Position numbers and translations under genes: made by a program | In this document: positions 8,953 through 64,000 of the stretch, piece after piece | Numbering within the stretch: position 1 is the stretch's first letter | Layout: each line of letters opens with the position of its first letter | The notes under the pieces: generated by a model | Told to the model about the DNA's origin: nothing | Databases searched by the model: none | The model's input: the letters and a program-made list of their open reading frames with translations, nothing else | DNA from: Antedon mediterranea | Lineage: Eukaryota; Animalia; Echinodermata | Direction of reading: 5' to 3' | DNA length: 64,000 bases | Assembly (NCBI RefSeq): GCF_964355755.1 | Contig: NC_092673.1 | Span: 20,581,648 to 20,645,647, forward strand

Positions 8953-9084
8953 TTAGTCGCGTGTGGACGCGACTCTATAGTTCACTATGTCGGTCGGTCG
9001 GTCTGTCTGTCGGTTTGTCGGTCTGTCTGTCGGTCCGGTATCACTATGCATTGTAGCACGCGACTTAATGGCTGTTGGCCTTGT
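8953..9084 (+). mobile_element. Complete minimal Helentron/DINE-1-like element
   Basis: 5' hairpin agtcgcgt-gtgg-acgcgact, GTCY/GTCG microsatellite, 3' subTIR cacgcgact, short 3' hairpin ggctgttggcc. Lies in a T-run with no TSD. Confidence 0.82.
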
Positions 9085-36317: not shown

Positions 36318-38044
36318 ATCTTTTCAGCCTACTATCGGAACAACAATCCAATCTTGCGATTCATTCCTAGAATAAACAAGAATAAACCCTCAATATCGGA
36401 ATACATATAAAGCTTACAATTAACAATATAGCTTCAATTATCCACCTAAACCACTAGACAATGCTCACTGTACACGTGTTTTGTGTTATTTATACCGTAC
36501 ACAATGGGCTTTACGTGAAAAGTACTTTAATGCTTGTTGAAATATAAAGAAAGAAAGCCTTGGCGGATCTCGCCACATTTTTTTCAAACAAATAATGGAT
36601 TTATTTATTATTTTCATCCGTTCCATAGCATTAACATTCAACAGGTAAATAACAGTTTATAAAAGATCATCCTGAAATGGTTTGCTGTGTGAAAAATACT
36701 TTAAACAAGCTGATGAGGTCTTAAACATGTTAAAGTGTATCCAGGAATGTGGAAGTGGTTGTTTAAGCAAAGTCATAACAGTTAAATGTATATAAAAATG
36801 ACAAATTAAATATGATGATGCTAATAAAAATCAATTTATTCCATCAAGGAAAAATACAAAATTAAGCTCTAATAGAAAAAAAAAATTATACTGGTACAGG
36901 CCTAAACATAATATATTATAAATATCTTATTATACAAATCAGGCAAATTACTGAAAAATGACAATGCTCTGGGTATCAGTGGCTGGATCTCAATGGAGAT
37001 ACAAAATCATAAGCAAAAACCTAAATCAAATCGATCGGATAAAGTAAAACTTTCGTGCATCAGTTATTATTATTATTTATTCAGGCAAAAGATACATTTT
37101 ACAAAATATAATACAAATCAACAAATTAAACAAACACAACGCAAGAAGAAAATATAAAATCAGTCACTAGCTGCCAGGAAAGCACAAAAGCAGCCTAGGC
37201 CACTGTCACCAATTAGGTGTGTACCTCCAACAAGTGACATGTTCGTGTTATTATTTATTATTATTATTTATTTAGGCAAAAGATACATTAGTTTATATAT
37301 TTTAAAAATATGTTATTGCAACAAAATTGTTACCTAATTCTTTGTTACATAAAATACGGTATCGGAAATGGAACAGATTTACGTGCCCCGAAACCAAAAA
37401 CGACCTGAATTTACTATAAGAAATCCAACCGTAGCTCCAGGTGCACCTTCGGCTCCACTCAAAATGCTGACCCTGCTGCCTACGCCTATTAAAACTATTA
37501 CTTGTTGCTGTTGGTTAATCAACTCTTCTTATGTCTGGTGTCAAACGCTTGACCGTTTTTTTTGTGGACTAAATTGAAGATTATTTATCTTATATAGTAC
37601 TTGAATTAGATGACAGAGGACACTTAAAGTTAAAATGTATTATACAGTACTTGGAATTTCTGTATCTTACCGATGACGTAACGACTAACGTCAATCATCA
37701 AAATTACTTACCGGGGATTTGTAAATACTGCAACCATGGCTCCCTGGTTATACCAAAAATGTGTACGTACCACTGTCGACGCAACGCAAGGACAACGTCA
37801 TACTCGCAACACAATTACGCAAGTTGAGTAGACCAATAACAGGCGACAATTCCGATGACCGCGTCCTGTCGTCAAATGACTTGCGTTGATGTTGTGTTTT
37901 TTTTATATACATACGGTACATTGTCGTCGTAGTAAAATATTTTGTTGTAATAATCGATTAAATCTCATTGTACTGAAAATACATTTTTATAGAATACTAA
38001 AATAGTTATCTGGCAGGTGGCCAACAAAATAAACAAAAGTATAA

Positions 38045-39263: not shown

Positions 39264-39356
39264 AGCTCTGTGTCCAAATATGGTAGTGATATGACATCAT
39301 CATGTCCATATATGGGCACATCACATTTTTTTTTGTCACATAAAGTTTGATAGTGA
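39264..39356. mobile_element. Internally deleted AGCTCTGTCTACAC-family MITE
   Basis: agctctgt joined to the core atggtagtgatatgacatcatcatgtccatatatgggcac...aagtttgatagtg. Confidence 0.75.
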
Positions 39357-40084
39357 TATTGAATAATTACCATGAAAAAAAGAGGCATCTTACGGTACTA
39401 TGCGCGCGTAAATATATAAATGATGCATAAAGCCCCGATATAGGCGGCCCCTCATATTATTATTCATCTTTAAACAACTGTGAAATAAATACGTCATAAA
39501 AATGAACTACTAAAATCAGAACGTGTACTTACAAGTGACATTTCGAGAATTAATTGTAGTACTGTAAGGCCTAGTTAGTGACAATACTGTGTTTACACGC
39601 TAAGCTTCCTTTACCTGCCTGTGACAAGACAAGCGAACAGAATAAAAGATGAACAGACAACGAAGAAGAAGCAATAGAGGCGACACAAAGGTACATCAAT
39701 GGCTAGATTCATTTATGTGCGTATAATAGTAGGTTTCGAGGTGGTGAAGAGGACAAATTACCAAAGATCTGGCCTACTACAGCGCTCAGTCGCATTAGGT
39801 CTCACAAAATACTGAAATATAAACACTGAATCCAAGATTCTTCACCCCAGGCCTTGATACCTAATCTGAACTCGAGTCAAATTACAAAGTGATGATGGTG
39901 GAGAAGAATCGCTCGCCGGGCGCTGACGTTTTGGTTTTTGATTTCTTTTTTAGGTTCAACATTTATTATTTTATCATACACACTAACATACACTTAACAT
40001 TCTCTTATTTAGGCCTCAACTCTGAAAAATATTGTTTTGGTCTATTAACTTTTATGTCTATCAATGATGATGTTTTTCCTCTTT

Positions 40085-43000
40085 TTAGTTATCCGCTTGG
40101 TATACCAAGCGGATAACTCCTTGTGATTGTATGAGATCAACAGTTTTTTTCTGTATTATTAGTTATCCGCTTAGTAGCGGATAACTCCTTGTAATCGTCC
40201 TGGATCTTTTTTTTTTTTTTCTTTATTAGTTATCCGCATTCAGCGGATAACTCCTTGTAACTGTCCTGTTTCATCATCTTTTTAGTTATCCGCTTAGTAG
40301 CGGATAACTCCTTGTGATTGTAGTGGATCAATATTTTTTTTTTAGTTATCCGCATTGAGCGGATAACTCCTTGTAACTGTCCTGTTACTTTTTTTTAGTT
40401 ATCCGCTTAGTAGCGGATAACTCCTTGTGATTGTAGTGGATCAATATTTTTTTTTTTTTTTTCTGTATTCTTCTTATTTCTTTCCCATTTTTTTGTGAGT
40501 CACGTTTCTCTAAAATGTGTAAACATAACATTTTATAACTTTGACAACATGTGGGCATTTACGTGAAGTTGTGCATCTCCTATTTTGAATGACGTCAGAG
40601 TTGCGCAACGTGACTTGCGCGCGATTTTATGATTTTTAATGATTGATCATAGCTTAAAAACCAAGAGTAATTTTTTTTTTACCCTTTATGAAAATTTAAG
40701 TCATATCAAGGGCAAATTGTTAGTGCACTAAAAATGGCATGTTTTACAAAAAGTTACGCGTGCACGCGCATTTAAAATTTCAAAATGCGCAAAATTAATT
40801 TCTAATCAACTTTCTACGCGTTTCATGTCATTTTAAGCATGTAAAAAATTCCCACGCGTGCGCACATTTTTGCGTGTGCGGTGCGCACGTAGCATTAAAA
40901 ACATATTTTTTTCGAGTGATTTATGTTTTTCCAGCCTTTTATAGTAATTTTACCAACTTTTAAACACTTCCGACTTAAAGTTACGTCATACGAGCACGTC
41001 GAATTGGACAATTTGCGCACGTTTTTGATGAAAAAGTACAAAAATTTGTCAAAATTATGCCTTTTTTTAAACAGTCGTAATTTCTAAACTACACGGTCAA
41101 CTTTTTGTGGATGACATATTCCGGAAGTTGATGAGTTGTAGATATCAGATCATGTATTAATATGGCTAACCGGACATTTTAACGTCATCGTATGGCCACG
41201 CGAATATAAAATTGAGGATTTTTGTATCTTTCGTCATAGCTCATCACATTTAATAGAGCCATTCTCCACTTATCCATTTTCCATTTTCACCCCGATTTTG
41301 ATATTGTCTAGGTCAATCAACTATCTTTCGCATGAGTTAAAAATATTTTAATTATTATGACGTCATCATGCCTAAAAATTTAAATTACATGTGGCATTAA
41401 TTTCATCTTTACAGAAAATTTTAATCTGTTATAGCTCGTAAGAATAAAATGTGATAATCACGATTAAAACGTTTTCTGGAAGATATTGGATTGTAGATAC
41501 AAAATCATGTAAACATTTGGCAAATCGGATGTTGTGACGTCATCATATGGCCAGTTAAATAAAAAAAGTCGTATTTTCATATTTTGCGTCATAGTTCATT
41601 ACATTTAAAAGAGCGCGCATTAATATTTCACGTATTAAAATTTCTTCTACACGTTAATATGTTGTTGCTGAGATAATTTCCTTCCGAAATTGCTATATCA
41701 GTGTTTCATTTTCATACCGTCACCATGTTAAAAATTGGAATAAATGACGGGACCCGTAATTTCGCCTATCCTACACTGTAATAATATGTATACAGATTAT
41801 ACTATGTATACTGTAAATAGTATATGACACAAAATATACAGCATTTAGCACTAACAACATATTATACTCTTCAGTTCATGTCAATATGCCATAATCTTTT
41901 TCTGTGTCCAATATATGACGTGCACGTGGCGTTTGTCGTGCGGATAACTAACTCGTCAAAGTGACGAGTTTCATGTCTAGTATTTTTTTTTTTTTTCTGT
42001 ATTATTAGTTATCCGCTTAGTAGCGGATAACTCCTTGTAATCGTCCTGTTTCATCATATTTTTTTTTTTTTTCTGTATTATACTTCTTTCCTTCTGTCAT
42101 TTTTGTGCGTCGTGTTTCTCTAAAACGTGTAAACAGAACATATCGTAACTTTCTCAACATATCGACATTTACGTGAACTTGTGCACCTCCTATTTTTGAA
42201 TGACGTCAGAGTTGCGCAACGTGACTTATGCGCGATTTTATGAATTTCAATGATTGATCATAGACTAAAAACCAAACATAATTTTGTTTTGACACTTTGT
42301 GAAAATTTAAGTCATATCAAGCGCAAACTTTCTATGGATTAAAAATAGCATGTTTCACAAAAAGTTACGCGCGCACGCGCGTTTAAAATTTTACTATGGG
42401 AAAAATCAACTTCTAATCAACTTTCTATGCGTTTCATGTCATTTTGAGCATGTCAAAAATTCCCACGCGCGCGAAAATTTTTACGCACGCGGTGCACACG
42501 AAGCGTTAAAAACATATTTTTTTTGCATGATTTATGTTTTTTCAGCCTTTTCTAGTAATGTTACCAACTTTTAAACAATTTCGACTTAAAATTACGTCAT
42601 ACGAGCACGTCGAATTAGATAATTTGCACGCGTTTTTGGTGAAAAAGTTCCAAAATTCGTCAAAATTATGCCTATTTTTAAACAGTCATAGATTCTAAAC
42701 TACATGGAGAACTTTTTTTTAATTACATATTCTGGAAGTTGATGAGTTGTAGATATCGAATCATGCATTAATATGGCTAACCGAACATTGTGACGTCATC
42801 GTATGGCCACGCGAATATAAAATATAGGATTTTTGTCTCTTTCGTAATAGCTCATCACATTTAATAGAGCGCATCTCCACTTATTTTTTGTCCATTTTCA
42901 CCCCGATTTTAATATATTCTAGGTCAATCAACTATCTTTTGCATGAATTAAGAATTTTTTAATTTGTTTAACGTCATCATGCCTAAAAATTTAAATTACG

Positions 43001-46000
43001 TTGGTCATTAATTTCATCTTTACAGTAAATTTTAATCTGTTATAGCTCGTAAGAATAAAATGTGATAATCACAATTAAAACATTTACAGGATGCTATTGT
43101 ATAGTAGATACAAAATCATGTGAAAATTGTGCCAATCGAATGTTGTGACGTCATCATATGGCCAGTTGAATAAAAAAAGTCGTATTTTCATATTTTGCGT
43201 AATAGTTCATCACATTTAAAAGGGTGCACATCTATATTTTACGTATTCAAATTTCTTCTACACGTTAATATGTTTTTCCTGAGATAATTTCCTTCTGAAA
43301 TTGCTATCTAAGTGTTTCATTTTGATACCGTCGCCATGTTAAAAATTGGAATAAATGGCGGGTCCCGTAATTTCACCTATTCTACACTGTATGTAATATG
43401 TATACAGATTATAATGTTTGCATGTATATACTATATGACACAAAATTGACAGAATTCAGCACTAACAGCATATCTTATTCTTCAGTTCTTGTCATAATGC
43501 CATAATCTTTATCTGTGTGCAATATTCCAACGTATGACGTGCACGTGGCGTTTGTCGTGGTGCGGATAACTAACTCGTCAAAGTGACGAGTTTCATGTCT
43601 AGTACTTCTTTCCTTCTGTCATTTTTGTGCGTCGCGTTTCTCTAAAACTTGTAAACAGAACATATCGTAACTTTGTCAACATATCGACATTTACGTGAAC
43701 TTGTGCACCTCCTATTTTTGAATGACGTCAGAGTTGCGCAACGTGACTTACGCGCGATTTTATGAATTTCAATGATTGATCATAGACTAAAAACGAAACA
43801 TAATTTTGTTTTGACACTTTGTGAAAATTTAAGTCACATCAAGCGCAAACTTTCTATGGATTAAAAATAGCATGTTTCACAAAAAGTTACGCGCGCACGC
43901 GCGTTTAAAATTTTAGAGTGCGAAAAATCAACTTCTAATCAACTTTCTATGCGTTTCATGTCATTTTGAGCATGTCAAAAATTCCCACGCGCGTGAAACT
44001 TTTTACGCACGCGGTACACACGTAGCGTTAAAAACATATTTTTTTCGCGTGATTTATGTTTTTTCAGCCTTTTATAGTAATGTTACCAACTTTTAAACAA
44101 TTTCGACTTAAAATTACGTCATACGAGCACGTCGAATTAAATAATTTGCACGCGTTTCTGGTGAAAAAGTTCAAAAATTCGTCAAAATTATGCCTATTTT
44201 TAAACAGTCATAGATTCTAAACTACATGGAGAACTTTTTTTAAATTACATATTCTGGAAGTTGATGAGTTGTAGATATCGAATCATGCATTAATATGGCT
44301 AACCGGACATTGTGACGTCATCGTATGGCCACGCGAATATAAAATATAGGATTTTTGTCTCTTTCGTCATAGCTCATCACATTTAATAGAGCGCATCTCC
44401 ACTTATTCGTTGTCCATTTTCACCCCGATTTTAATATATTCTAGGTCAATCAACTATCTTTTGCATGAATTAAAAATTTTTCAATTTTTTTAACGTCATC
44501 ATGCCTAAAAATTTAAATTACATTGGTCATTAATTTCATCTTTACAGTAAATTTTAATCTGTTATAGCTCGTAAGAATAAAATGTGATAATCACGATTAA
44601 AACGTTTTCAGGAAGCTATTGTATAGTAGATACAAAATCATGTGAAATTTTGCCAATCGAATGTTGTGACGTTACCATATGGCCAGTTAAATACAAAAAG
44701 TCGTATTTTCATCTTTTGCGTTATATTTCATTACATTTAAAAGAGCGCGCATCAATATTTCACGTATTCCAATTTCTTCTACACGTTAATATGTTGTTGC
44801 TGAGATAATTTCATTCTGAAATTTCTACTTTTGCATTTCATTTTGAAACCGTCAAGATGTTAAAAATTACAATAAAATACGGGTCCCGTAATTTCACCTA
44901 TTTTACACTGTTTGTGATATGTATACAGATTGTACTGTGTATACTATATGACACAAAATAACAGAATTCAGAAATAACAACATATCATATTCTTCAGTTC
45001 AGGTCATAATGCCTTAATATTTTTCTGTGCGCGATATTGTAACGTATGACGTGCACGTGGCGTTTGTCGAGCGGATAACTAACTCGTCAAAGTGACGAGT
45101 TTCATGTCTAGTACTTCTTTCCTTCTGTCATTTTTGTGCGTCGCGTTTCTCTAAAACGTGTAAACAGAACATATCGTAACTTTGTCAACATATCGACATT
45201 TACGTGAACTTGTGCACCTCCTATTTTTGAATGACGTCAGAGTTGCGCAACGTGACTTACGCGCGATTTTATGAATTTCAATGATTGATCATAGACTAAA
45301 AACGAAACATAATTTTGTTTTGACACTTTGTGAAAATTTAAGTCACATCAAGCGCTAACTTTCTATGGATTAAAAATAGCATGTTTCACAAAAAGTTACG
45401 CGCGCACGCGCGTTTAAAATTTTAGAATGCGAAAAATCAACTTCTAATCAACTTTCTATGCGTTTCATGTCATTTTGAGCATGTCAAAAATTCCCACGCG
45501 CGCGAAACTTTTTACGCACGCGGTACACACGTAGCGTTAAAAACATATTTTTTTCGCGTGATTTATGTTTTTTCAGCCTTTTATAGTAATGTTACCAACT
45601 TTTAAACAATTTCGACTTAAAATTACGTCATACGAGCACGTCGAATTAAATAATTTGCACGCGTTTCTGGTGAAAAAGTTCAAAAATTCGTCAAAATTAT
45701 GCCTATTTTTAAACAGTCATAGATTCTAAACTACATGGAGAACTTTTTTTAAATTACATATTCTGGAAGTTGATGAGTTGTAGATATCGAATCATGCATT
45801 AATATGGCTAACCGGACATTGTGACGTCATCGTATGGCCACGCGAATATAAAATATAGGATTTTTGTCTCTTTCGTCATAGCTCATCACATTTAATAGAG
45901 CGCATCTCCAGTTATTCGTTGTCCATTTTCACCCCGATTTTAATATATTCTAGGTCAATCAACTATCTTTTGCATGAATTAAAAATTTTTTAATTTTTTT

Positions 46001-49000
46001 AACGTCATCATGCCTAAAAATTTAAATTACATTGGTCATTAATTTCATCTTTACAGTAAATTTTAATCTGTAATAGCTCGTAAGAATAAAATGTGATAAT
46101 CACGATTAAAACGTTTTCTGGAAGCTATTGGATTGTAGATACGAATTCATGTAAACATTTTGCCAATCGGATGTTGTGACGTCATCATATGGCCAGTTGA
46201 ATAAAAAAAGTCGTATTTTCATATTTTGCGTAATAGTTCATCACATTTAAAAGGGTGCGCATCTATATTTTACGTATTCAAATTTCTTCTACACGTTAAT
46301 ATGTTGTTTCTGAGATAATTTCCTTCTGAAATTGATATTTAAGTGTTTCATTTTGATACCGTCGCCATGTTAAAAATTTGAATAAATGGCGGGTCTCGTA
46401 ATTTCACCTATTCTACACTGTATGTAATATGTATACAGATTATACTGTTTGCATGTATATACTATATGACACAAAATTGACAGAATTCAGCACTAACAGC
46501 ATATCATATTCTTCAGTTCTTGTCATAATGCCATAATCTTTATCTGTGTGCAATATTCTAACGTATGACGTGCACGTGGCGTTTGTCGTTGTGCGGATAA
46601 CTAACTCGTCAAAGTGACGAGTTTCATGTCTAGTTTTTCTTTCCTTCTCCCCCATTTTTGTGTCTCACGTATCTCAAAAACTTGTAAACATAACATGTTA
46701 TAACTTTGTCAGCATGAGGGCATTCACGTGAAGTTGTGCACCTCCTATTTTTGAATTATGTCAGAGTTGCGCAACATGACTTACGCGCGATTTTATGAAT
46801 TTCACATATTTAACATAGGTCAAAAACCAAATAACATTTTAAATTGAAACTTTGCAAAAGTTTAATTTATATCATGCGCTAACTTTTTGTTGAAAAAAAA
46901 ATGCGTGTTTTACAAAAAGTTACGCGCGTACGCGCATTTAAAATTTCAAAATGCGCAAAATTAATTTCTAATCAACTTTCTACGCGTTTCATGTCATTTT
47001 GAGCATGTCAAAAATTCCCATGCGCGCGCAAATTTTTACGCGCGCGGAGCACACGTACCGTTAAAAACAGATTTTTTTCGCGTGATTTATGTTTTTTCAG
47101 CCTTTTCTAGTAATTTTACCAACTTTTAAACAATTTCGACTTCAAATTACGTCATACGGGCACGTCGAATTGGATAATTTATGTGCGTTTTTGATGAAAA
47201 AGTTCAAAAATTTGTCAAAATTTGTCAAAATTATACCTTTTTTTAAACAGTCGTAGTTTCTAAACTAAACGGTAAAAGTTATTTTTATTACGTATTTTGG
47301 AAGATGATGAGTTGTAGATCATGTATCATGCATCAATACGGCTTACCGGACATTGTGACGTCATCGTATGGCCATGCGAATATAAAAAATAGAATTTTTG
47401 TATCTTTCATCATAGCTCGTCACATTTAATAGAGCGCATCTCCAATTATCTGTTTTCCATTTTCACCCCGATTTTGATATTGTCTAGGTCAATCAACTAT
47501 ATTAGCATGAGTTAAAAATATTTTAATTTTTATGACGTCATCAAGCCTAAAAATTTAAATTACGTGTGGCATTAATTTCATCTTTACAGTAAATTTCAAT
47601 CTGTTATAGCTCGTCAGAATAAAACGTGATAATCATGATTAAAACGTTTTCTGGAAGCTATTGGATTGTAGATACGAATTCATGTAAACATTTTGCCAAT
47701 CGGATGTTGTGACGTCATCATATGGCCAGTTGAATAAAAAAAGTCGTATTTTCATATTTTGCGTAATAGTTCATCACATTTAAAAGAGCGCGCATCTATA
47801 TTTTACGTATTCAAATTTCTTCCACACGTTAATATGTTGTTGCTGAGATAATTTCCTTCCGAAATTGGTATCTTAGTGTTTTATTTTGATACCGAAGCCG
47901 TGTTAAAAATAAGTATAAACGGGGGGACCCGTAATTTCACCTATTCTACACTGTATGTAACATGTATACAGATTATACCGTTTGCACTGTATATACTATA
48001 TGACACAAAATTGACAGAATTCAGCACTAACAGCATATGATATTCTTCAGTTCAGGTCATAATGTCATAATCTTTTTCCGTGTGCAAAATTCCAACGTAT
48101 GACGTGCGCGTGGCGTTTGTCGTGCGGATAACTAACTCGTCAAAGTGACGAGTTTCATGTCTAGTTTTTTTTGGTTATCCGCACTTGGCGGATAACCCCT
48201 TGTTATTGTCAGGATCTTTTTTTTTCTTTTTTTTTTTCTATCTTATTCTTCTTTCTTTCCCGGAATTTTGTTCGCAGCGTATCTCTAATTCTGGCCAATA
48301 TAAGATTGTGTAACTTTGTCATAAGATTGACCTCTAGCTGTAGATGTGCAGGACGTTTCGTTTTTTAACTTTAGAGTCGCGCAGCGTAAGTTACGCGCGA
48401 TTTTATGAATTTCAATGATTGATCATAGCTTAGAAATCAAAAGTCATTTTGTAATGAAACTTGGTGAAAATTTAAGTCATATCAAGCGCAAACTTTCTAT
48501 GGATTAAAAATGGCAAGTTTGACAAAAAGTTACGCGTGCACGCGCGTTTAAAATTTCAAAATGCGAAAAATCAATTTCTAATCAACTTTCTACGCGTTTC
48601 ATGTCATTTTGAGCATTTCAAAAATTCCCTTGCGTGCGCAATTTTTTTACGCGCGCGTGCGCACGTAGCCCAGAAACATCTTTTTTTTGCTTGATTTTTG
48701 TTTTTTCAGCCTTTTCTAGTAAGTTTATCAATTTTAAATCAATTTCGACTTAAAATCACGTCATACGAGCACGTAGAATTAAACAATTTGCGCGCAATTT
48801 TGATGAAAAAGTTCAAAAATTTGTGAAAATTATGCCTTTTTTTAAACAGTCATAGATTCTAAACTACGTCGTAAACTTTTTTATATTTACATATTCTGGT
48901 AGTAGATGAGTTGTAGATATCGAATCATGTATCAATATGGCTATCAGGACATTGTGACGTCATCGTATGGCCACTCGAATATAAAATATAGGATTTTTTT

Positions 49001-52000
49001 CTCTTTCGTATAGCTCATCACATTTAATAGAGCGCATCTCCACTTATCCGTATTCCATTGCCCTCCATTTCTTTATATTGCCTATGTCAATCAATTATCT
49101 TTCGCATGATTCACCATTTTAAAAATTGTTATGACGTCATCATGTGCAAAAGCCTCAATAACTTTGGTCACTTATTTTCACCTATTCTGAACTGTATGTA
49201 GTACGTATACGGTATATAGTGTATACCGTATACACTTTGACGTGACACAAAATAGAGAGCGCACTCACATTTTTTCAATGGCATAATCGTTTTTCTGCGC
49301 GCAATATTCCAACGTATGACGTGCACGTGGCTTTAGGACTGCGGATAACCTAACTCGTCCGTAGTGACGAGTTCAAATCTAGTTCTGTATTCTTCTTATT
49401 TCTTTCCCATTTTTTTGTGAGTCACGTTTCTCTAAAATGTGTAAACATAACATTTTATAACTTTGACAACATGTGGGCATTTACGTGAAGTTGTGCATCT
49501 CCTATTTTGAATGACGTCAGAGTTGCGCAACGTGACTTGCGCGCGATTTTATGATTTTTAATGATTGATCATAGCTTAAAAACCAAGAGTAATTTTTTTT
49601 TTACCCTTTATGGAAATTTAAGTCATATCAAGGGCAAACTGTTAGTGCACTAAAAATGGCATGTTTTACAAAAAGTTACGCGCGCACGCGCATTTAAAAT
49701 TTCAAAATGCGCAAAATTAATTTCTAATCAACTTTCTACGCGTTTCATGTCATTTTAAGCATGTAAAAAATTCCCACGCGTGCGCACATTTTTACGTGTG
49801 CGGTGCGCACGTAGCATTAAAAACATATTTTTTCGAGTGATTTATGTTTTTCCAGCCTTTTATAGTAATTTCACCAACTTTTAAACACTTTCGACTTAAA
49901 GTTACGTCATACGAGCACGTCGAATTGGACAATTTGCGCACGTTTTTGATGAAAAAGTACAAAATTTGTCAAAATTATGCCTTTTTTTAAACAGTCGTAA
50001 TTTCTAAACTACACGGTCAACTTTTTGTGGATGACATATTCCGGAAGTTGATGAGTTGTAGATATCGGATCATGTATTAATATGGCTAACCGGACATTTT
50101 AACGTCATCGTATGGCCACGCGAATATAAAATTGAGGATTTTTGTATCTTTCGTCATAGCTCATCACATTTAATAGAGCGCATCTCCACTTATCCATTTT
50201 CCATTTTCACCCCGATTTTGATATTGTCTAGGTCAATCAACTATCTTTCGCATGAGTTAAAAATATTTTAATTATTATGACGTCATCATGCCTAAAAATT
50301 TTAATTACATGTGGCATTAATTTCATCTTTACAGAAAATTTTAATCTGTTATAGCTCGTAAGAATAAAATGTGATAATCACGATTAAAACGTTTTCTGGA
50401 AGATATTGGATTGTAGATACAAAATCATGTAAACAAATCGGATGTTGTGACGTCATCATATGGCCAGTTAAATAAAAAAAGTCGTATTTTCATATTTTGC
50501 GTCATAGTTTATTACATTTAAAAGAGCGCGCATTAATATTTTACGTATTAAAATTTCTTCTACACGTTAATATGTTGTTGCTGAGATAATTTCCTTCCGA
50601 AATTGCTATATCAGTGTTTCATTTTCATACCGTCACCATGTTAAAAATTGGAATAAATGACGGGACCCGTAATTTCGCCTATCCTACACTGTATTAATAT
50701 GTATACAGATTATACTATGTATACTGTAAATAGTATATGACACAAAATATACAGCATTTAGCACTAACAACATATTATACTCTTCAGATCATGTCAATAT
50801 GCCATAATCTTTTTCTGTGTCCAATGTATGACGTGCATGTGGCGTTTGTCGTGCGGATAACTAACTCGTCAAAGTGACGAGTTTCATGTCTAGTTGGTTA
50901 TCCGCACTTGGCGGATAACCTCTTGTTATTGTCAGGATCTTTTTTTTTTTTTTTTTTTTTTTTTTCTATGTTATTAGTTATCCGCTTAGTAGCGGATAAC
51001 TCCTTGTAATCGTCCTGTTTCATCATATTTTTTTTTTTTTTTTTTGGTTATCCGCAACTTTAAGTTGCGGATAACCCTTGTGATTGTAAATATCTTTTTT
51101 TTCATCTTCTTCTTTGTTATTCTTCTTTCTTTCCCGGATTTTTGTGCGTCGCATATCTCTCATCCTTGTCAACATAAGATTGTATAACTTTGTCAAAAGA
51201 TTGACCTGTAGCTGTAGATGTGCAAGAAACTTTGTTATATGACGTTAGAGTTACGCAGCGTAAGTTATGCGCGATTTTATGAATTTCAATGATTGGTCAT
51301 AGATTATAAACCAAAAGTCGTTTTGTATTGACACTTGGTGAAAATTTAAGTCATATCAAGGGCAAACTTTCTATGGATTAAAAATGACATGTTTCACAAG
51401 AAGTTACGCGCGCACGCGCATTTAAAATTAAAAAATGCGCAAAATTAATTTCTAATCAACTTTCTACGCTGATCATGACATTTTTAGCATGTCAAAAATT
51501 CCCACGCGCGCGAAAAAAATTACGCGTAAGGTGCGCACGGAGCATGAAAATCATGTTTTTTTTTCTTGAATTATGATTTTACAGCCTTTCTTAGTCATTT
51601 AAAAAAAGATTTATATCATTTCAAATTAAAATGACGTCATACGAACACGTTGATTTAGACAATTTGCGTGCGTTTTAGTTGCAAAAGTGACAAAATATTG
51701 TCAAAATTATGCCTACTTTGAATCAATTATAGCTCCTCAGGATCAACCGTTACCCCCAATTTTTTTAATATAATATGTAAGCAGATATGTTGTAGATATG
51801 AATTCATGCAGAATCTTTACCCCTCGGATGTTATGACGTCATCGTATGGCCACACGAATGTAAAATATTGGATTTTTGACTGTTTCGCTATTGCTCATTA
51901 CATTAAATAGAGCGCATATCGCTTATACGTATTCCATTTCCTCAGATATTTTAATACTGTCTAGGTCAATCAACTATCTTTCGCATGAGTTAAAAATATT

Positions 52001-55000
52001 TTAATTTTTATGACGTCATCATGTCTAAAAATGTAAATAACGTGGGTCACCTATTTTCATCTTTACAGTAAATTTCAATCTGTTATAGCTCGTCAGAATA
52101 AAAAGTGATCATCATGATTAAAACGTTTTCTGGAAGCTATTGGATTGTAGATACAGATTCATGTGAATATTTTGCCAATTAGATGTTGTGATGTCATTAT
52201 ATGGCCAGTTGAATACAAAAAGTCGTATTTTCATATTTTGCGTCATAGTTCATCACATTTAAAAGAGCGCGCATCTATATTTTACGGATTTAAATTTCTT
52301 AAAATTTGTATTAATGTAATTATTTAGATACTTATCTTCTAAAATTGTTATCTTTATACGTCGATTTGATGACGTCATCGTGTTAATAATTGGATTTCAA
52401 AGATGGGTCTCGTAATATCGTCTATGCTACACTGTATATAACATATACAGCGTATTCTGTAAATACTGTAATATGATGTATGCTACAAAATAGGTACAAT
52501 TCAGCACTGTAAACATATTTATTTCATGTCATAGGATGGAATAATAATTGTCGAGGTTCATATGGTTAAGTTTGTGCATGTTGCGTTTGCGCGGATAACC
52601 CGAACTCGTCAAAGTGACGAGTTCAAATCTAGTTTTCTGTATTATACTTCTTTCCTTCTGTCATTTTTGTGCGTCGCGTTTCTCTGAAACGTGTAAACAG
52701 AACAAATCGTAACTTTGTCAACATATCGACATTTACGTGAACTTGTGCACCTCCTATTTTTTAATGACGTCAGAGTTGCGCAACGTGACTTTACGCGCGA
52801 TTTTATGAATTTCAATGATTGATCATAGACTAAAAACCAAACATAACTTTGTTTTGACACTTTGTGAAAATTTAAGTTACATCAAGCGCAAACTTTCTAT
52901 GGATTAAAAATAGCATCTTTCACAAGAAGTTACGCGCGCACGCGCGTTTAAAATTTTAGAGTGCGAAAAATCAACTTCTAATCAACTTTCTATGCGTTTC
53001 ATGTCATTTTGAGCATGTCAAAAATTCCCACGCGCGCGAAACTTTTTACGCACGCGGTGCACACGTAGCATTAAAAACATATTTTTTTCGCGTGATTTAT
53101 GTTTTTTCAGCCTTTTATAGTAATGTTACCAACTTTTAAACAATTTCGACTTAAAATTACGTCATACGAGCACGTCGAATTAAATAATTTGCACGCGTTT
53201 CTGGTGAAAAAGTTCAAAAATTCGTCAAAATTATGCCTATTTTTAAACAGTCATAGATTCTAAACTACATGGAGAACTTTTTTTTAATTACATATTCTGG
53301 AAGTTGATGAGTTGTAGATATCGAATCATGCATTAATATGGCTAACCGGACATTGTAACGTCATCGTATGGCCACGCAAATATAAAATATAGGATTTTTG
53401 TCTCTTTCGTCATAGTTCATCACATTTAATAGAGCGCATCTCCACTTATTCGTTGTCCATAGCGGATAACTCCTTGTAATCGTCCTGTTTCATCATATTT
53501 TTTTTTTTTTTTTTTTTCTGTATTATACTTCTTTCCTTCTGTCATTTTTGTGCGTCGCGTTTCTCTGAAACGTGTAAACAGAACAAATCGTAACTTTGTC
53601 AACATATCGACATTTACGTGAACTTGTGCACCTCCTATTTTTTAATGACGTCAGAGTTGCGCAACGTGACTTACGCGCGATTTTATGAATTTCAATGATT
53701 GATCATAGACTAAAAACCAAACATAACTTTGTTTTGACACTTTGTGAAAATTTAAGTTACATCAAGCGCAAACTTTCTATTTCAATTTCATATTTTTTTC
53801 GCGTGATTTATGTTTTTTCAGCCTTTTATAGTAATGTTACCAACTTTTAAACAATTTCGACTTAAAATTACGTCATACGAGCACGTCGAATTAAATAATT
53901 TGCACGCGTTTCTGGTGAAAAAGTTCAAAAATTCGTCAAAATTATGCCTATTTTTAAACAGTCATAGATTCTAAACTACATGGAGAACTTTTTTTTAATT
54001 ACATATTCTGGAAGTTGATGAGTTGTAGATATCGAATCATGCATTAATATGGCTAACCGGACATTGTAACGTCATCGTATGGCCACGCAAATATAAAATA
54101 TAGGATTTTTGTCTCTTTCGTCATAGTTCATCACATTTAATAGAGCGCATCTCCACTTATTCGTTGTCCATTTTCACCCCGATTTTAATATATTCTAGGT
54201 CAATCAACTATCTTTTGCATGAATTAAAAATTTTTTAATTTTTTCAACGTCATCATGCCTAAAAATTTAAATTACGTTGGTCATTAATTTCATCTTTACA
54301 GTAAATTTTAATCTGTTATAGCTCGTAAGAATAAAATGTGATAATCACGATTAAAACGTTTTCAGGAAGCTATTGTATTGTAGATACAAAATCATGTGAA
54401 AATTGCTCCAATCGAATGTTGTGACGTCATCATATGGCCAGTTAAATACAAAAAGTCGTATTTTCATCTTTTGCGTTATATTTCATTACATTTAAAAGAG
54501 CGCGCATCAATATTTCACGTATTCAAATTTCTTCTACACGTTAATATGTTGTTGCTGAGATAATTTCATTCTGAAATTTCTACTTTTGCATTTCATTTTG
54601 AAACCGTCAAGATGTTAAAAATTACAATAAAATACGGGTCCCGTAATTTCACCTATTTTACACTGTTTGTGATATGTATACAGATTGTACTGTGTATACT
54701 ATGTATATGACACAAAATAACAGAATTCAGAAATAACAACATATCATATTCTTCAGTTCAGGTCATAATGCCTTAATATTTTTCTGTGTGCAATATTCTA
54801 ACGTATGACGTGCACATGGCGTTTGTCGAGCGGATAACTAACTCGTCATAGTGACGAGTTTCATGTCTAGTTGGTTATCCGCTCTTGGCGGATAACCTCT
54901 TGTTATTGTCAGGATCTTTTTTTTTTTTTTCTATGTTATTCTTCTTTCTTTCCCAAAATTTTGTGTCACGTGTATCTCAAATTCTGATCAACATTACATC

Positions 55001-58000
55001 GTATAACTTTGTCAGAAGATTAACCTCTATGTGTAGAAGTGCAGGACAGCTCGTTTTTTTACTTTAGAGTCGCGCAGCGTAAGCTACGCGCGATTTTATG
55101 AATTTCGCGTATTTAACATAGACTAAAAAGCAAAAGTCATTTTGTAATGACACTTGGTGAACATTTAAGTCATATCAAGGGCAAACTTTCTATGGATTAA
55201 AAATGGCATGTTTGACATAAAGTTACGCGCGCACGCGCGTTTAAAATTTCAAATTGCGAAAAATTCATTTCTAATCAACTTTCTACGCGTTTCAGGTCAT
55301 TTTGAGCATTTCAAAAATTCCCAGGCGTGCGCATATTTTTTACGCGCGCGTGCGCACGTAGTGCAAAAACGTCTTTTTTTTGCTTGATTTTTGTTTTTTC
55401 AGCCTTTTCTAGTACATTTACCAATTTTCAATCAATTTCGACTTAAAATCACGTCATACGAGCACGTAGAATTGAACAATTTGCGCGCGTTTTTGATGAA
55501 AAAGTTCAAAAATTTGTGAAAATTATGCCTTTTTTTAAAAAGTCATAGATTCTAAACTCCGAGGTGAAAATATTTAAAATTTCAGATTCTGGAAGTAGAT
55601 GAGTTGTTTTTCTCGAATCATGCATTGATATGGCTAACCAGACATTGTGACGTCATCGTATGGCCACCCGAATATAAAATATAGGATTTTTTTCTCTTTC
55701 GTCATAGCTCGTCAATTTAATAGAGCGCATCTCTACTTATCCTTATTCCATTTCACTCAATTTTTTTATATTGTCTAGATCAATCAATTACCTTTCGCAT
55801 GATCCACCATTTTAAAAATTGTGATGACGTCATCATGTTCAAATGCGTCAATAACTTTGGTCTCTTATTTTCACCTATTCTGCACTGTATGTAGTACGTA
55901 TACAGTATATAGTGTTATACCGTATATACTTAGACGCGACGCAACATAGAGAGCGCACTAACATTTTTCAATGCCATAATCGTTTTATTTTTTTGCGCGC
56001 ACTATTCTAACGTATGACGTGCACGTGGCTTTTGCGCTGCGGATAACCTAACTCGTCCGTAGTGACGAGTTCAAATCTAGTACTTCTTTCTTTCTGTCAT
56101 TTTTGTGCGTCGCGTTTCTCTAAAACGTGTAAACAGAACATATCGTAACTTTGTCAACATATCGACATTTACGTGAACTTGTGCACCTCCTATTTTTGAA
56201 TGACGTCAGAGTTGCGCAACGTGACTTACGTGCGATTTTATGAATTTCAATGATTGATCATAGACTAAAAACCAAACATAATTTTGTTTTGAAACTTTGT
56301 GAAAATTTAAGTCATATCAAGCGCAAACTTTCTATGGATTAAAAATAGCATGTTTCACAAAAAGTTACGCGCGCACGCGCGTTTAAAATTTTAACGTGCG
56401 AAATATTAACTTCTAATCAACTTTCTATGCGTTTCATGTCATTTTGAGCATGTCAAAAATTCCCACGCGCGCGAACATTTTTACGCACGCGGTGCACACG
56501 TAGCGTTAAAAACATATTTTTTTCGCGTGATTTATGTTTTTTCAGCCTTTTCTAGTAATGTTACCAAATTTTAAACAATTTCGACTTAAAATTACGTCAT
56601 ACGAGCACGTCGAATTAGATAATTTGCACGCGTATTTGGTGAAAAAGTTAAAAAATTCGTCAAAATTATGCCTATTTTTAAACAGTCATAGATTCTAAAC
56701 TACATGGAGAACTTTTTTTTAATTACATATTCTGGAAGTTGATGAGTTGTAGATATCGGATCATGCATTAATAAGGCTAACCGGACTTTGTGACGTCATC
56801 GTATGGCCACGCGAATATAAAATAGAGGATTTTTGTCTATTTCGTCATAGCTCATCACATTTAATAGAGCGCATCTCCACTTATTCGTTGTCCATTTTCA
56901 TTCCGATTTTAATATATTCTAGATCTATCAACAATCTTTTGCATGAATTAAAAATTTTTTAATTTTGTTAACGTCATCATGCCTAAAAATTTAAATTACG
57001 TTGGTCATTAATTTCATCTTTACAGTAAATTTTAATCAGTTATGCCTCGTAAGAATAAAATGTGATAATCACAATTAAAACGTTTTCAGGAAGCTATTGT
57101 ATTGTAGATACAAAATCATGTGTAAATTGTGCCAATCGAATGTTGTGACGTCATCATATGGCCAGTTAAATAAAAAAAGTCGTATTATCATCTTTTGCAT
57201 TATATTTCATTACATTTAAAAGAGCGCGCATCAATATTTCACGTATTCAAATTTCTTCTACACGTTAATACGTTGTTGCTGAGATAATTTCATTCAGAAA
57301 TTTCTACTTTTACATTTCATTTTGAAACCGTCAAGATGTTAAAAATTACAATAAAATACGGGTCCCGTAATTTCACCTATTTTACACTGTTTGTGATATG
57401 TATACAGATTGTACTGTGTATACTATATGACACAAAATAACAGAATTCAGAAATAACATATCATATTCTTCAGTTCAGGTCATAATGCCTTAATATTTTT
57501 CTGTGTGCAATATTCTAACGTATGACGTGCACGTGGCGTTTGTCGAGCGGATAACTAACTCGTCAAAGTGACGAGTTTCATGTCTAGTACTTCTTTCCTT
57601 CTGTCATTTTTGTGCGTCGCGTTTCTCTAAAACTTGTAAACAGAACATATCGTAACTTTGTCAACATATCGACATTTACGTGAACTTGTGCACCTCCTAT
57701 TTTTGAATGACGTCAGAGTTGCGCAACGTGACTTACGCGCGATTTTATGAATTTCAATGATTGATCATAGACTAAAAACGAAACATAATTTTGTTTTGAC
57801 ACTTTGTGAAAATTTAAGTCACATCAAGCGCAAACTTTCTATGGATTAAAAATAGCATGTTTCACAAAAAGTTACGCGCGCACGCGCGTTTAAAATTTTA
57901 GAGTGCGAAAAATCAACTTCTAATCAACTTTCTATGCGTTTCATGTCATTTTGAGCATGTCAAAAATTCCCACGCGCGTGAAACTTTTTACGCACGCGGT

Positions 58001-61000
58001 ACACACGTAGCGTTAAAAACATATTTTTTTCGCGTGATTTATGTTTTTTCAGCCTTTTATAGTAATGTTACCAGCTTTTAAACAATTTCGACTTAAAATT
58101 ACGTCATACGAGCACGTCGAATTAAATAATTTGCACGCGTTTCTGGTGAAAAAGTTCAAAAATTCGTCAAAATTATGCCTATTTTTAAACAGTCATAGAT
58201 TCTAAACTACATGGAGAACTTTTTTTAAATTACATATTCTGGAAGTTGATGAGTTGTAGATATCGAATCATGCATTAATATGGCTAACCGGACATTGTGA
58301 CGTCATCATATGGCCACGCGAATATAAAATATAGGATTTTTGTCTCTTTCGTCATAGCTCATCACATTTAATAGAGCGCATCTCCACTTATTCGTTGTCC
58401 ATTTTCACCCCGATTTTAATATATTCTAGGTCAATCAACTATCTTTTGCATGAATTAAAAATTTTTTAATTTTTTTAACGTCATCATGCCTAAAAATTTA
58501 AATTACATTGGTCATTAATTTCATCTTTACAGTAAATTTTAATCTGTTATAGCTCGTAAGAATAAAATGTGATAATCACGATTAAAACGTTTTCAGGAAG
58601 CTATTGTATAGTAGATACAAAATCATGTGAAAATTTTGCCAATCGAATGTTGTGACGTTATCATATGGCCAGTTAAATACAAAAAGTCGTATTTTCATCT
58701 TTTGCGTTATATTTCATTACATTTAAAAGAGCGCGCATCAATATTTCACGTATTCCAATTTCTTCTACACGTTAATATGTTGTTGCTGAGATAATTTCAT
58801 TCTGAAATTTCTACTTTTGCATTTCATTTTGAAACCGTCAAGATGTTAAAAATTACAATAAAATACGGGTCCCGTAATTTCACCTATTTTACACTGTTTG
58901 TGATATGTTTACAGATTGTACTGTGTATACTATGTATATGACACAAAATAACAGAATTCAGAAATAACAACATATCATATTCTTCAGTTCAGGTCATAAT
59001 GCCTTAATATTTTTCTGTGTGCAATATTCTAACGTATGACGTGCACGTGGCGTTTGTCGAGCGGATAACTAACTCGTCAAAGTGACGAGTTTCATGTCTA
59101 GTTCTTCTTTCTTTCCCAAAATTTTGTGTCACGTGTATCTCAAATTCTGATCAACATTACATCGTATAACTTTGTCAGAAGATTTACCTCTATGTGTAGA
59201 AGTGCAGGACAGCTCGTTTTTTTACTTTAGAGTCGCGCAGCGTAAGCTACGCGCGATTTTATGAATTTGGCGTATTTAACATAGACTAAAAAGCAAAAGT
59301 CATTTTGTAATGACACTTGGTGAACATTTAAGTCAAAGCAAGGGCAAACTTTCTATGGATTAAAAATGGCATGTTTGACATAAAGTTACGCGCGCACGCG
59401 CGTTTAAAATTTCAAATTGCAAAAAATTCATTTCTAATCAACTTTCTACGCGTTTCAGGTCATTTTGAGCATTTCAAAAATTCCCACGCGTGCGCTTATT
59501 TTTTACGCGCGCGTGCGCACATAGCGCAAAAACATCTTTTTTTTGCTTGATTTTTGTTTTTTCAGCCTTTTCTAGTACATTTACCAATTTTCAATCAATT
59601 TCGATTTAAAATCACGTCATACGAGCACGTAGAATTGAACAATTTGCGCGCGTTTTTGATGAAAAAGTTCAAAAATTTGTGAAAATTATGCCTTTTTTTT
59701 AAAAGTCATAGATTCTAAACTCCGAGGTGAAAATATTTAAAATTTCAGATTCTGGAAGTAGATGAGTTGTTTTTCTCGAATCATGCATTGATATGGCTAA
59801 CCAGACATTGTGACGTCATCGTATGGCCACCCGAATATAAAATATAGGATTTTTTTCTCTTTCGTCATAGCTCGTCAATTTAATAGAGCGCATCTCTACT
59901 TATCCTTATTCCATTTCACTCAATTTTTTTATATTGTCTAGATCAATCAATTACCTTTCGCATGATCCACCATTTTAAAAATTGTGATGACGTCATCATG
60001 TTCAAATGCGTCAATAACTTTGGTCACTTATTTTCACCTATTCTGCACTGTATGTAGTACGTATACAGTATATAGTGTTATACCGTATATACTTAGACGC
60101 GACGCAACATAGAGAGCGCACTAACATTTTTCAATGCCACAATCGTTTTATTTTTTTGCGCGCACTATTCTAACGTATGACGTGCACGTGGCTTTTGCAC
60201 TGCGGATAACCTAACTCGTCCGTAGTGACGAGTTCAAATCTAGTTTTTTTTCTGTATTCTTCTTTCTTTCTGTCATTTTTGTGTCTCGCGTAACTCAAAA
60301 ACGTGTAAACATAACATTTCATAACTTTGTCAACATGTGGGCATTTACGTGAAATTGTGCACCTCCTATTTTGAATGACCTCAGAGTTGCGCAACATGAC
60401 TTACGCGCGTTTTTACGAATTTCGCGTATTTAACATAGATCGAAAACCATATAACAATATATTATGAAACTTAACAAAAGTTTAAGTTATATCTTGCGCT
60501 AACTGACTATGGAGAAAAAATGGCATGTTTCACACGAAGTTACGCGTGCACGCGCGTTTAAAATTTCAAAATGCGAAAAATCAATTTCTAATCAACTTTC
60601 TAGGCATTTCATGTCATTTTGAGCATGTAAAAAATTCCCAAGCGCGCGCATTTTTTTACGCGCACGGTGCGAACGTAGCGTTGAAAACAATTTTTTTTGC
60701 GTGATTTATGTTTTTTCAGCCTTTTCTAGTACTTTTACCAACTTTTAAACAATTTCGACTTAAAATTACGTCATACCGGCACGTTGAATTGGATAATTTA
60801 CGTGCGTTTTTGATGAAAAAGTTAAAAAATTTGTCAAAATTCGTCAAAATTATGCCTTTTTTTAAACAGTCATAGATTCTAAACAACGAGGTGAACTTTT
60901 TTTTAATTACATATTCTGGAAGTTGGTGAGTTGTAGATATCGGATCATGAATCAATATGGCTAACCGGACATTGTGACGTCATCGTATGGCCACACGAAT

Positions 61001-64000
61001 GTAAAATATAGGATTTTTGTCTCTTTCGTTATTGCTCATCACATTCAATGGAGCGCATCACGCTTATCTGTATTCCTTTTTCTCCTACATTTATATATTG
61101 TGTAGGTCAATCAACTTTCTTTAGCATGAGATAAAAATATTTTAATTTTTATGACGTCATCATGCTTAAAAATTTCAATTACGTGGGTAATTAATTTCAT
61201 CTTTACAGTAAATTTTATTCTGTAATAGCTCGTAAGAATAAAATGTTATAATCACGATTAAAACGTTTTCTGGAAGCTATTGGATTGTAGATACGAATTC
61301 ATGTAAACATTTTGCCAATCGGATGTTGTGACGTCATCATATGGCCAGTTGAATAAAAAAAGTTGTATTTTCATATTTTGCGTAATAGTTCATCACATTT
61401 AAAAGGGTGCGCATCTATATTTTACGTATTCAAATTTCTTCTACACGTTAATATGTTGTTCCTAAGATAATTTCCTTCTGAAATTGCTATCTAAGTGTTT
61501 CATTTTGATACCGTCGCCATGTTAAAAATTGGAATAAATGGCGGGTCCCGTAATTTCACCTATTCTACACTGTATGTAATATGTATACAGATTATACTGT
61601 AGTGTTTGCATGTATATACTATATGACACAAAATTGACAGAATTCAGCACTAACAGCATATCATAATCTTCAGTTATTGTCATAATGCCATAATCTTTAT
61701 CTGTGTGCAATATTCCAACGTATGACGTGCACGTGGCGTTTGTCGTGGTGCGGATAACTAACTCGTCAAAGTGACGAGTTTCATGTCTAGTATTATTCTT
61801 CTTTCTTTCTCCTCCATTTTTGTGTCTCGCGTATCTCAAAAACTTGTACACATAACATTTCATAACTTTGTCATCATATGGACATTTACGTGAAGTTGTG
61901 CACCTCCTATTTTTTAATGACGTCAGAGTTGCGCAACGTGACTTACGCGCGATTTTATGAATTTCATTGATTGATCATAGGATAAAAAATAAAAGTTATT
62001 TTGTATTGACACTTGGTGAATATTTAAGTCATATCAAGGGCAAACTTTCTATGGATTAAAAATGGCATGTTTTACAAGAAGTTTACGTGCACACGCGCAT
62101 TTCTCCTCCATTTTTGTGTCTCGCGTATCTCAAAAAAGTGTAAATATAACATTTCATAACTTTGTCAACATATGGGCATTCACGTGAAGTTGTGCACCTC
62201 CTATTGTGAATGACCTCAGAAATGCGCAACGTGACTTACGCGCGATTTTATGAATTTCGCGTATTTAACATAGATTGAAAACCATATAACAATTTAATTT
62301 GAAACTTAGCAAAAGTTTAAATTATATCTTGCGCTAACTTTTTGTGCACTAAAAATGGCATGTTTTACACAAAGTTACGCGCGCACGCGCATTTAAAATT
62401 TAAAATGCGCAAAATTAATTTCTAATCAACTTTCTACGCTGATCATGACATTTTGAGCATGTCAAAAATTCCCACGCGCGCCAACAATCTTACGCGCGTG
62501 GTCCGCACGTAGCGCTAAAAACATCTTTTTTGCGTGAATTATGTTTTTTCAGCCTTTTATAGTAATTTTATCAACTTTTAAAACAATTTAGAATTAAAAT
62601 TACGTCATACGAGCACGTCGAATTGTACAATTTGTGCGTGTTTTTAATGAATAAATTCAAAAATTCGTCAAAATTATGCCTTTTTTTAAACAATCATAGA
62701 TTCTAAACTACGAGGTAAACTTTTTTTTTCACTTACATTTTCTGGAAGGTGATGAGTTGTAGATATCGGATCATTAAACAATATGGTTAACCGGACATTG
62801 TGACGTCATCGTATGGTCACACGAATGTAAAATATATGATTTTTGTCTCTTTCATTATTGCTCCTCACATTAAATGGAGCGCATCACCGTTATCTGTATT
62901 CCTTTTTCTCCGAGATTTTAATATTGTCTAGGTAAATCAACTATCTTAAGCATGTGTTTAAAATTTTTAATTTTTATGACATCATCATGCCTAAAAATTT
63001 AAATTAGGTGTTATACTGTGTACTTTAAAATGTATATATTATATGACACAAAATAGACAGAATTTAGCACTAACAACATATCATATTCTTCAGTTCAGGT
63101 CATAATGTCATAATCTTTTTCTGTGTGCAACATTCCAACGTAAGACGTGCACGTGGCGTTTGTCGAGCGGATAACTAACTCGTCAAAGTGACGAGTTTCA
63201 TGTCTAGTTCTTCTTTCCATCCTTCCTTTTTGTGGATCGCGTTTCTCTAAAATGTGTAAACATAACATTTCTTAACTTTGACAACATATGGGCATTTACG
63301 TGAAGTTGTGCACCTCCTATTTTTGAATGACGTCATAGTTGCGCAACGTGACTTACGCGCAATTTTATGAATTTCAATGATTGATCATAGATTAAAAACC
63401 AAAAGTCATTTAGTATTGACACTTTGACAAAATTTAAGTCATATCAGGGGCAAACTTTCTACGGATTAAAAATGGCATGTTTCACAAGAAGTTACGCGCG
63501 CACGCGCATTTAAAATTTCAAAATGCGCAAAATTAATTTCTAATCAACTTTTTATGCGTTTCTTGTCATTTTGAGCATGTCAAAAATTCCCACGGGCGCG
63601 CAATTTTTTACGCACGTGGTGCGCACGTAGCGTTAAAAACATATTTTTTTCTCTTGTATTATATTTTTCAAGCCTTTCCTAGTAATTTTGAAAACAATTT
63701 AGACCTTTTCCAATTTAAATAACGCCATACGAACACGTTGAATTAAACATTTCATGTGCGTTTTTTATGAAAAAGCTTAAAAAATCGTCAAAATTTTGTC
63801 TTTTTTTAAACAGTCATAGTTTCTAAAGTAAACCGTGAACCGTTTATTTTTATTACAAAATCTAGAAGTTGATGAGTTGTAGATAACGGATCATGCATCG
63901 ATAAGGCTAAAAAAACATTGTGACGTCATCGTATGGCCACACGAATGTAAAATATAGGATTTTTGTCTCTTTCGTTATTGCTCATCACATTCAATGGAGC
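40085..64000 (+). mobile_element. Nested cluster of non-autonomous Helentron/Helitron2-like (DINE/HINE-type) elements, 1.2-1.6 kb each
   Basis: 5' heads tt(a/g)gttatccgc-loop-gcggataac at 40085, 40159, 40226, 40282, 40342, 40395, 42005, 48171, 50894, 50974, 51044 and 54871 (partial at 53461). 3' ends gcggataac + hairpin aactcgtc-N5/6-gacgagtt + CTAG|T at 41980, 43602, 45111, 46633, 48164, 49382, 50893, 52632, 54870, 56080, 57587, 59101, 60243, 61790 and 63207. No TSDs and no Rep/helicase ORF. Confidence 0.92.

Follow-up and report, generated by a model that had tools for sequence, protein, structure and literature searches.

A six-level nest of HINE-like rolling-circle elements in the echinoderm Antedon mediterranea, probably built by repeated self-insertion

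How does a block of repeats come to open with a stack of element starts whose bodies follow only later? This question is raised by a stretch of 64,000 nucleotides (nt) of Antedon mediterranea (NCBI RefSeq assembly GCF_964355755.1, contig NC_092673.1, positions 20,581,648 to 20,645,647 of the forward strand), which is referred to here as the window and whose numbering is used throughout. From 40085 to 64000 (~24 kb), the window consists of one non-coding repeat family, all on the + strand, with at least 16 element copies, represented by 12 5' ends (heads), 15 3' ends reading CTAG and one further body cut by the window end. The nest of stacked elements is confirmed as real. It was probably built by copies, moved by a RepHel transposase, that inserted repeatedly before a T in the 5' T-rich tract of resident copies, and the pile likely grew recently by such self-insertion.

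The six stacked heads recognized in an initial annotation of this sequence start at 40085, 40159, 40226, 40282, 40342 and 40395, and the other heads at 42005, 48171, 50894, 50974, 51044 and 54871. The head palindrome has 12 matches, all inside the nest, versus 0 in 100 shuffles. CTAG ends run from 41980 to 63207, with 15/15 on the + strand and 15/15 followed by T. Five copies are intact (40395, 42005, 48171, 51044 and 54871) and measure 1.2 or 1.6 kb; nesting reaches the depth of six originally proposed at 40395, 42005 and 51044, by two paths. The block was also described as satellite-like, which is apt only in a loose sense, as its nested bodies (1.1–2.2 kb long, 72–99.5% identical pairwise) have neither the fixed period nor the high uniformity of a satellite; in the nest region, a tandem finder covering periods of up to 500 detected only the head stack and short runs. 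A blast search of positions 1–40000 recovered only one 360-nt internal fragment of the family and two weak T-run matches. The features of the block, in order, are as follows.

40040–40084, + strand: left flank, unique and T-rich, whose T-run also leads into the empty allele (short-read contigs).
40085–40158, + strand: head 1, outermost; interrupted at nt 74; partner body 63208, by junction continuity and order only.
40159–40225, + strand: head 2; interrupted at nt 67; partner the first part of 61791, with an imperfect junction.
40226–40281, + strand: head 3; two elements (40282, 50894) inserted at nt 56; partner body 60244.
40282–40341, + strand: head 4; with 48165–48170 and 49383–50893 restores a twin of the 40395 element.
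40342–40394, + strand: head 5; partner body 46634 (contig joint); 41981–42004 is assigned to this head.
40395–41980, + strand: intact element, depth 6, 1586 nt.
41981–42004, + strand: 24-nt remnant of host T-tract between two insertions.
42005–43602, + strand: intact element, depth 6.
43603–46633, + strand: two headless bodies of the 42005 type, both beginning at the landing site of that type, the second being mosaic.
46634–48164, + strand: body of head 5.
48165–48170, + strand: six T left from the T-run of head 4, with an insertion on either side.
48171–49382, + strand: intact short-type element, 1212 nt.
49383–50893, + strand: body of head 4.
50894–50973, + strand: head 9; interrupted at nt 80; partner body 59102.
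50974–51043, + strand: head 10 (42005 type); interrupted at nt 70; partner body 52633.
51044–52632, + strand: intact divergent element, depth 6.
52633–54870, + strand: body of head 10, with an internal duplication from 53461 whose head is uninterrupted (T20).
54871–56080, + strand: intact short-type element; twin of head 9 plus body 59102.
56081–59101, + strand: two headless 42005-type bodies; 57588 is 99.5% identical to 43603.
59102–60243, + strand: body of head 9.
60244–61790, + strand: body of head 3.
61791–63207, + strand: chimeric body; the first ~311 nt belong to one subfamily, and near 62101 the sequence switches to ~nt 87 of another.
63208–64000, + strand: body of head 1, truncated by the end of the window; its own end is predicted from element length to lie ~0.7 kb further on.

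That these are split hosts, not loose fragments, is indicated by what remains when inserts are removed, a restoration of intact sequence that the initial annotation had already perceived. With two inserts taken out, head 40282, positions 48165–48170 and body 49383 equal the intact 40395 element at 130/130 5' positions, including the T16 run, and over the whole host only 14 of 1576 aligned positions mismatch. Head 50894 and body 59102 reproduce element 54871 across the junction except in T-run length (16 mismatches/1210). The T-run of head 50974 counts 16 T and is taken up again by 4 T in its body, which together match the 20 T of the element's own duplicate at 53461. Host restoration is exact in 3/3 split hosts that have a twin. 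Head 5 and its body are also joined directly (40394 to 46634) in short-read contigs of X2, X3 and X4 (3/4 runs, one sample), at ~8–12x single-copy depth and with short sides of 24–25 letters. For heads 40085, 40159 and 40226, the partners (63208, 61791 and 60244, respectively) were set by order and junction continuity. On head–body congruence, the proposed pairing ranks 33 among the 5040 permutations of the seven split heads (r 0.765; mean 0.218).

Matching heads and ends as plain brackets gives wrong partners from 45111 on, empties at 59101 and reaches a congruence of only 0.20; it fails because of four headless bodies and one chimeric body. The bracket pairs first proposed hold only when the four headless bodies are set aside, and a clean bracket nest does not, given 12 heads and 16 bodies. 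All four headless bodies (43603, 45112, 56081 and 57588) belong to the 42005 subfamily, begin exactly at its landing site and follow, in runs, a headed copy of that subfamily. The most satisfactory reading is that copies of this subfamily nested in one another and later lost heads, in which case the original depth may have been up to eight. Body 45112 is a mosaic. Body 61791–63207, previously taken with head 40159 for a simple element, is instead a chimera of two subfamilies, its parts being 82% alike over their shared segment and separate in the tree. The two subfamilies meet at 62101 with short T microhomology, possibly where a deletion joined two nested copies, in which case a 17th element existed. 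Separately, an internal duplication of the 50974 element (53461–53780) restarts at nt 17 inside the 5' palindrome and then jumps from ~nt 331 to 509; the duplicate keeps an uninterrupted head, and the 51044 insertion is therefore likely later. A common donor for the two runs of one head and three bodies was considered and rejected, as their first bodies are ~93% alike and the 99.5% pair matches the second body of one run with the third of the other.

The nest had also been proposed to record the relative age of its subfamilies. However, twins only 0.9–1.3% apart lie at different depths, one within the other (40282 holds 40395; 50894 holds 54871). The subfamilies were therefore active together, and the nest orders insertions, not subfamily age.

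The anatomy of the elements points to a non-autonomous member of the HLE2 class. Each intact copy consists, in order, of a TT start, a palindromic 5' subterminal inverted repeat (subTIR), a T-rich tract, a non-coding body, an inverted 3' subTIR, a stem-loop and CTAG. In element 40395, the start matches the reverse complement of the 3' subTIR over 12 nt, within the 11–15 bp given for HINE subTIRs in the portion of Thomas et al. drawn on here (Thomas et al. 2014, PMC4067079), and the 3' copy lies 41 nt from the end, compared with 38–60 nt in the mite HINEs of that account. A 5' palindrome overlaps the subTIR in 12/12 heads (hairpins of -11 to -16 kcal/mol in 3/3 folded), and the 3' end motif is present in 15/15 ends (stem-loop in 3/3 folded). 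All 12 heads start with TT and the elements carry subTIRs, unlike Helitron1/HLE1, which starts with TC and lacks subTIRs; the 3' hairpin and CTAG (CTRR) of 15/15 ends agree with that type. Coding capacity is nil, the longest stop-to-stop frame in the nest being 150 amino acids (aa). An Rfam search of the nest gave no match, and scans of metagenome and viral contigs for the element motifs gave 0 matches. In subTIR spacing, 5' palindrome, 3' stem-loop, T-rich target and lack of coding sequence, the elements agree with HINEs, and they are classified on these features as HLE2/HINE-type non-coding rolling-circle elements of several subfamilies. The Helentron-type anatomy of the initial annotation is thereby retained, while the name Helentron in its strict sense, with an endonuclease-bearing partner, is not claimed. 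Single short-read contigs of the family reach ~20–58x single-copy depth; summed depths are not taken as copy number, and these contigs show only that the subfamilies have dozens of near-identical copies. Run X1, from another organism (share 0.06), yields short related pieces (1853 contigs, those listed measuring 126–272 nt and differing at 7–17 positions) and underlies none of the claims made here.

The HINE/DINE-1 elements described by Thomas et al. (2014) are similarly non-coding, with a palindromic 5' subTIR, a 3' hairpin, a T-rich target and no target modification. Unlike them, the nest elements end in CTAG, as do Helitron1 and proto-Helentron, follow A in 4/12 heads and lack an internal microsatellite or tandem array; deep self-nesting does not appear in the portion of the HINE/DINE-1 account drawn on here (PMC4067079).

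All 11 inner heads sit in the same orientation at host nt 53–80, which is 27–54 nt beyond the 5' hairpin, with a T on the right, bearing out the suggestion that these elements insert into their own 5' T-rich tract. Under a null in which any N^T site may be used, the probability for nine junctions is ~2e-15. The landing is not uniformly within the T-run itself, since 4/11 inner heads occupy a TA^T site a few bases past it. The base preceding the head's TT is T in 6/12 heads, A in 4/12 and the G of the neighbour's CTAG in 2/12. A target-site duplication of TT is excluded by the TA that follows 6/15 ends and by exact host restoration, in agreement with the absence of duplication stated at the outset, and one terminal T is ambiguous between element and target. 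Three intact heads, 40159, 42005 and 50974, share their first 41 nt and all lie at TA^T sites, outside the T-run, as the four headless bodies imply for themselves; subfamilies may differ in fine target choice, though the numbers are small.

There is short-read evidence for the site without the block. The left flank is present in five runs. In X2, X3 and X4, a flank contig matches the window to 40086 with 0–1 substitutions (and a 9-letter gap in two runs), then continues into 102–169 other letters (169 in X3, 102 in two further runs). The X3 continuation, in a contig of depth 38.8, is T-rich and unlike the element, and gives the empty allele a right flank beginning ATTTATTTTTG, in accord with the unique T-rich flank that had been predicted. 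A version of the site without the block thus exists at single-copy depth. The block is likely a presence/absence polymorphism, and the sample may be heterozygous or lack it. Two other contigs hint at stacking, either elsewhere or at this locus: one of 59 nt has a head-1-like tail followed by only 12 letters of another head (below the 31-letter bar), and in the other a head-5-type tail directly precedes another head, with one T more than in the window.

The nest would have started from one copy in a unique T-rich site. A RepHel transposase, presumably encoded elsewhere, would move further copies, which insert just before a T, 53–80 nt inside a resident copy's 5' end; as each new copy brings a new landing tract, the nest would feed itself. 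Bypass of the 3' end and a T after the insertion point have both been shown for the bat Helitron Helraiser in the portion of that study drawn on here (PMC4778049), these biochemical data concerning a Helitron1. Heads might be lost through collapse of the identical 76-nt head repeats of same-subfamily nests, or when transposition starts at an inner head and reads through the first 3' end, either of which could leave the four headless bodies. A weaker suggestion is that the transposase prefers the tract to ordinary T-rich DNA by a factor of ~10 or more, probably owing to the 5' hairpin 27–54 nt away, to which the transposase is expected to bind. To our knowledge, target choice by HLE2/Helentron transposases is poorly known.

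Several observations count against this account. Congruence leaves some partners less firm, with better-scoring permutations swapping heads 1, 2, 3 and 5; the junction of head 2 (40159) is imperfect; and heads and bodies are unbalanced, at 12 versus 16. No contig joining the flank to head 1 is among the 8/169 pieces listed, and the empty-allele contig accounts for all the depth at 40056–40077, which leaves the nest here without direct read support. Solo copies exist, with heads in the same run (X3) preceded by unique T-rich or TTA flanks, and the bat Helitron is described as lacking local hopping in the part of the study cited (PMC4778049). The head tract is the most T-rich 40-mer of each tested element (28–31 T versus 23–27 elsewhere); a plain T preference therefore suffices for position and orientation within the element, the opposite strand having no comparable T-rich site. 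Nevertheless, T-richness does not readily explain the pile-up, as no intact copy sits in any of the clusters of the 40-kb flank with at least 26 T in 40 nt (14 clusters, or 100 at >=22 T). A toy urn model assumed a genome of 300 or 1000 Mb and 2,000–50,000 insertions; at equal weight its largest nest held 2–11 copies in all 30 runs, and 16 was reached only at a weight of at least 10. The model suggests that T-richness alone may be too weak to build a nest of this size, although it is rough, leaves selection aside and takes genome size and copy number as assumptions, and although the nest was the reason for choosing the window.

Could the block have arrived ready-made? Most of it may have formed at another site and been transposed here in one or a few composites, with the transposase initiating at an outer head and ignoring inner 3' ends; we consider this unlikely. 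Such read-through would leave headless bodies, and 3' bypass is known from Helraiser, in the part of that work cited above (PMC4778049). There is also a precedent for movement as a unit in the double-headed FoHelis, non-canonical fungal Helitrons with repeated 5' ends of 31–85 nt for which self-insertion has been proposed, according to the portion of the paper used here (Chellapan et al. 2016, PMC5148889). Further, as the block is absent from a near-identical allele (0–1 substitutions per flank contig), it must have come fast. However, the runs of one head and three bodies are not positional copies of each other, a whole-block move needs ~15 terminators to be bypassed, and the donor site would still require self-insertion.

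Mis-assembly of a high-copy repeat, creating the block or placing it here wrongly, is also very improbable. The X2–X4 contigs do show the site without the block and the listed pieces no junction, but short-read contigs drop variants, and the junction coincides exactly with the TT start of the element, within the T-run. Mis-joins would not be expected to yield a nested order with base-exact restoration, and head-before-head joins recur in short-read contigs, one with only 12 letters on one side, together with a loose end before 40159. Hardly any credence is given to a tandem array in which heads and bodies multiplied independently, whether through unequal exchange or through rolling-circle over-replication. 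Plant arrays with several 5' ends have been described (Xiong 2016, as summarised in the part of PMC12628747 used here), the mosaic bodies point to exchange between units and four bodies are plainly tandem. Yet the units are 72–99.5% alike, the stacked heads belong to different subfamilies, and the restoration of split hosts to the base largely refutes this origin, which could account only for the headless runs. Repeated insertion into resident copies remains the probable origin.

The remainder of the window has features of its own. At 8455–9080, two similar heads of a second, unrelated family with a GTCG/GTCT microsatellite, which we take to be HINE/DINE-1-like, flank the nest-family fragment (8595–8954; 360 nt, internal, 79–88% alike), and the second head sits in its internal T-run. 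A 407-aa open frame on the - strand (35100–36323) lies 3.8 kb from the nest; it has no Pfam match at cut-off, and atlas leads, all <0.9, are to animal PH-domain proteins. Two arrays of one 90-nt tandem repeat (96% matches) occupy 1–1487 and 2590–3912. At 39269–39355 lies a short repeat of very high copy number; a 21-nt motif in its loose ends recurs in the tandem repeats at 33447 and 4810.

Multiple 5' ends arising through self-insertion have been described for fungal Helitrons, and what appears to be new here is the depth, the mixture of subfamilies and the empty allele. The closest likeness is to FoHelis, which also insert in the first ~30–85 nt of another copy, include one possible double insertion into a 5' end and form composites by choice of start and stop; these have two or few heads and one 3' end, as opposed to 12 heads, 16 bodies, several subfamilies, six levels, ordered bodies and an empty allele (PMC5148889, in the portion used, whose supplements list multiple-termini cases and may hold deeper ones). 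The Xenopus element HelenXT233, an animal HLE2, similarly has two different 5' ends in direct repeat, but is a single autonomous element with two heads and, in the portion of the HELIANO paper drawn on, no nest (PMC11417382). Dimers of transposable elements (TE), formed by double insertion and proposed to seed satellites, likewise begin with a target preference that leads to repeated same-site insertion (McGurk and Barbash 2018, PMC5932611), and SaTar arrays also mix elements but are explicitly non-nested (PMC5907723). Both TE dimers and SaTars are side-by-side arrays of other superfamilies, with 0 occurrences of Helitron in the covered text of PMC5932611. Clustering of rolling-circle elements is known from maize, where Helitron1-type elements insert near other Helitrons (Yang and Bennetzen 2009, cited in the excerpted part of PMC12477314). 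Plant centromeric Helitron arrays also have several 5' ends, but are of Helitron1 type and have been explained by over-replication instead of insertion at a fixed landing site inside the element (Xiong 2016, via the same part of PMC12628747). No account was found of a many-level, multi-subfamily HINE nest or of a nest with an empty allele, in a literature search limited largely to open-access main texts.

A bolder reading is possible, which we hold only tentatively: that the resident 5' hairpin guides the HLE2 transposase to integrate 27–54 nt downstream, that one insertion can thereby snowball into a 25-kb nest six to eight deep within the lifetime of one polymorphism, and that large structural variants in animals repeatedly arise from nests of this kind, a source so far overlooked. 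The nest preserves many ordered insertion events at base resolution and would allow a direct test of whether resident ends recruit copies. Repeat annotation that matches each 5' end to the closest 3' end would go wrong at such loci, as naive pairing did here. Should the entire block prove polymorphic, it would show how a single short insertion can become a structural variant of 25 kb close to a probable gene.

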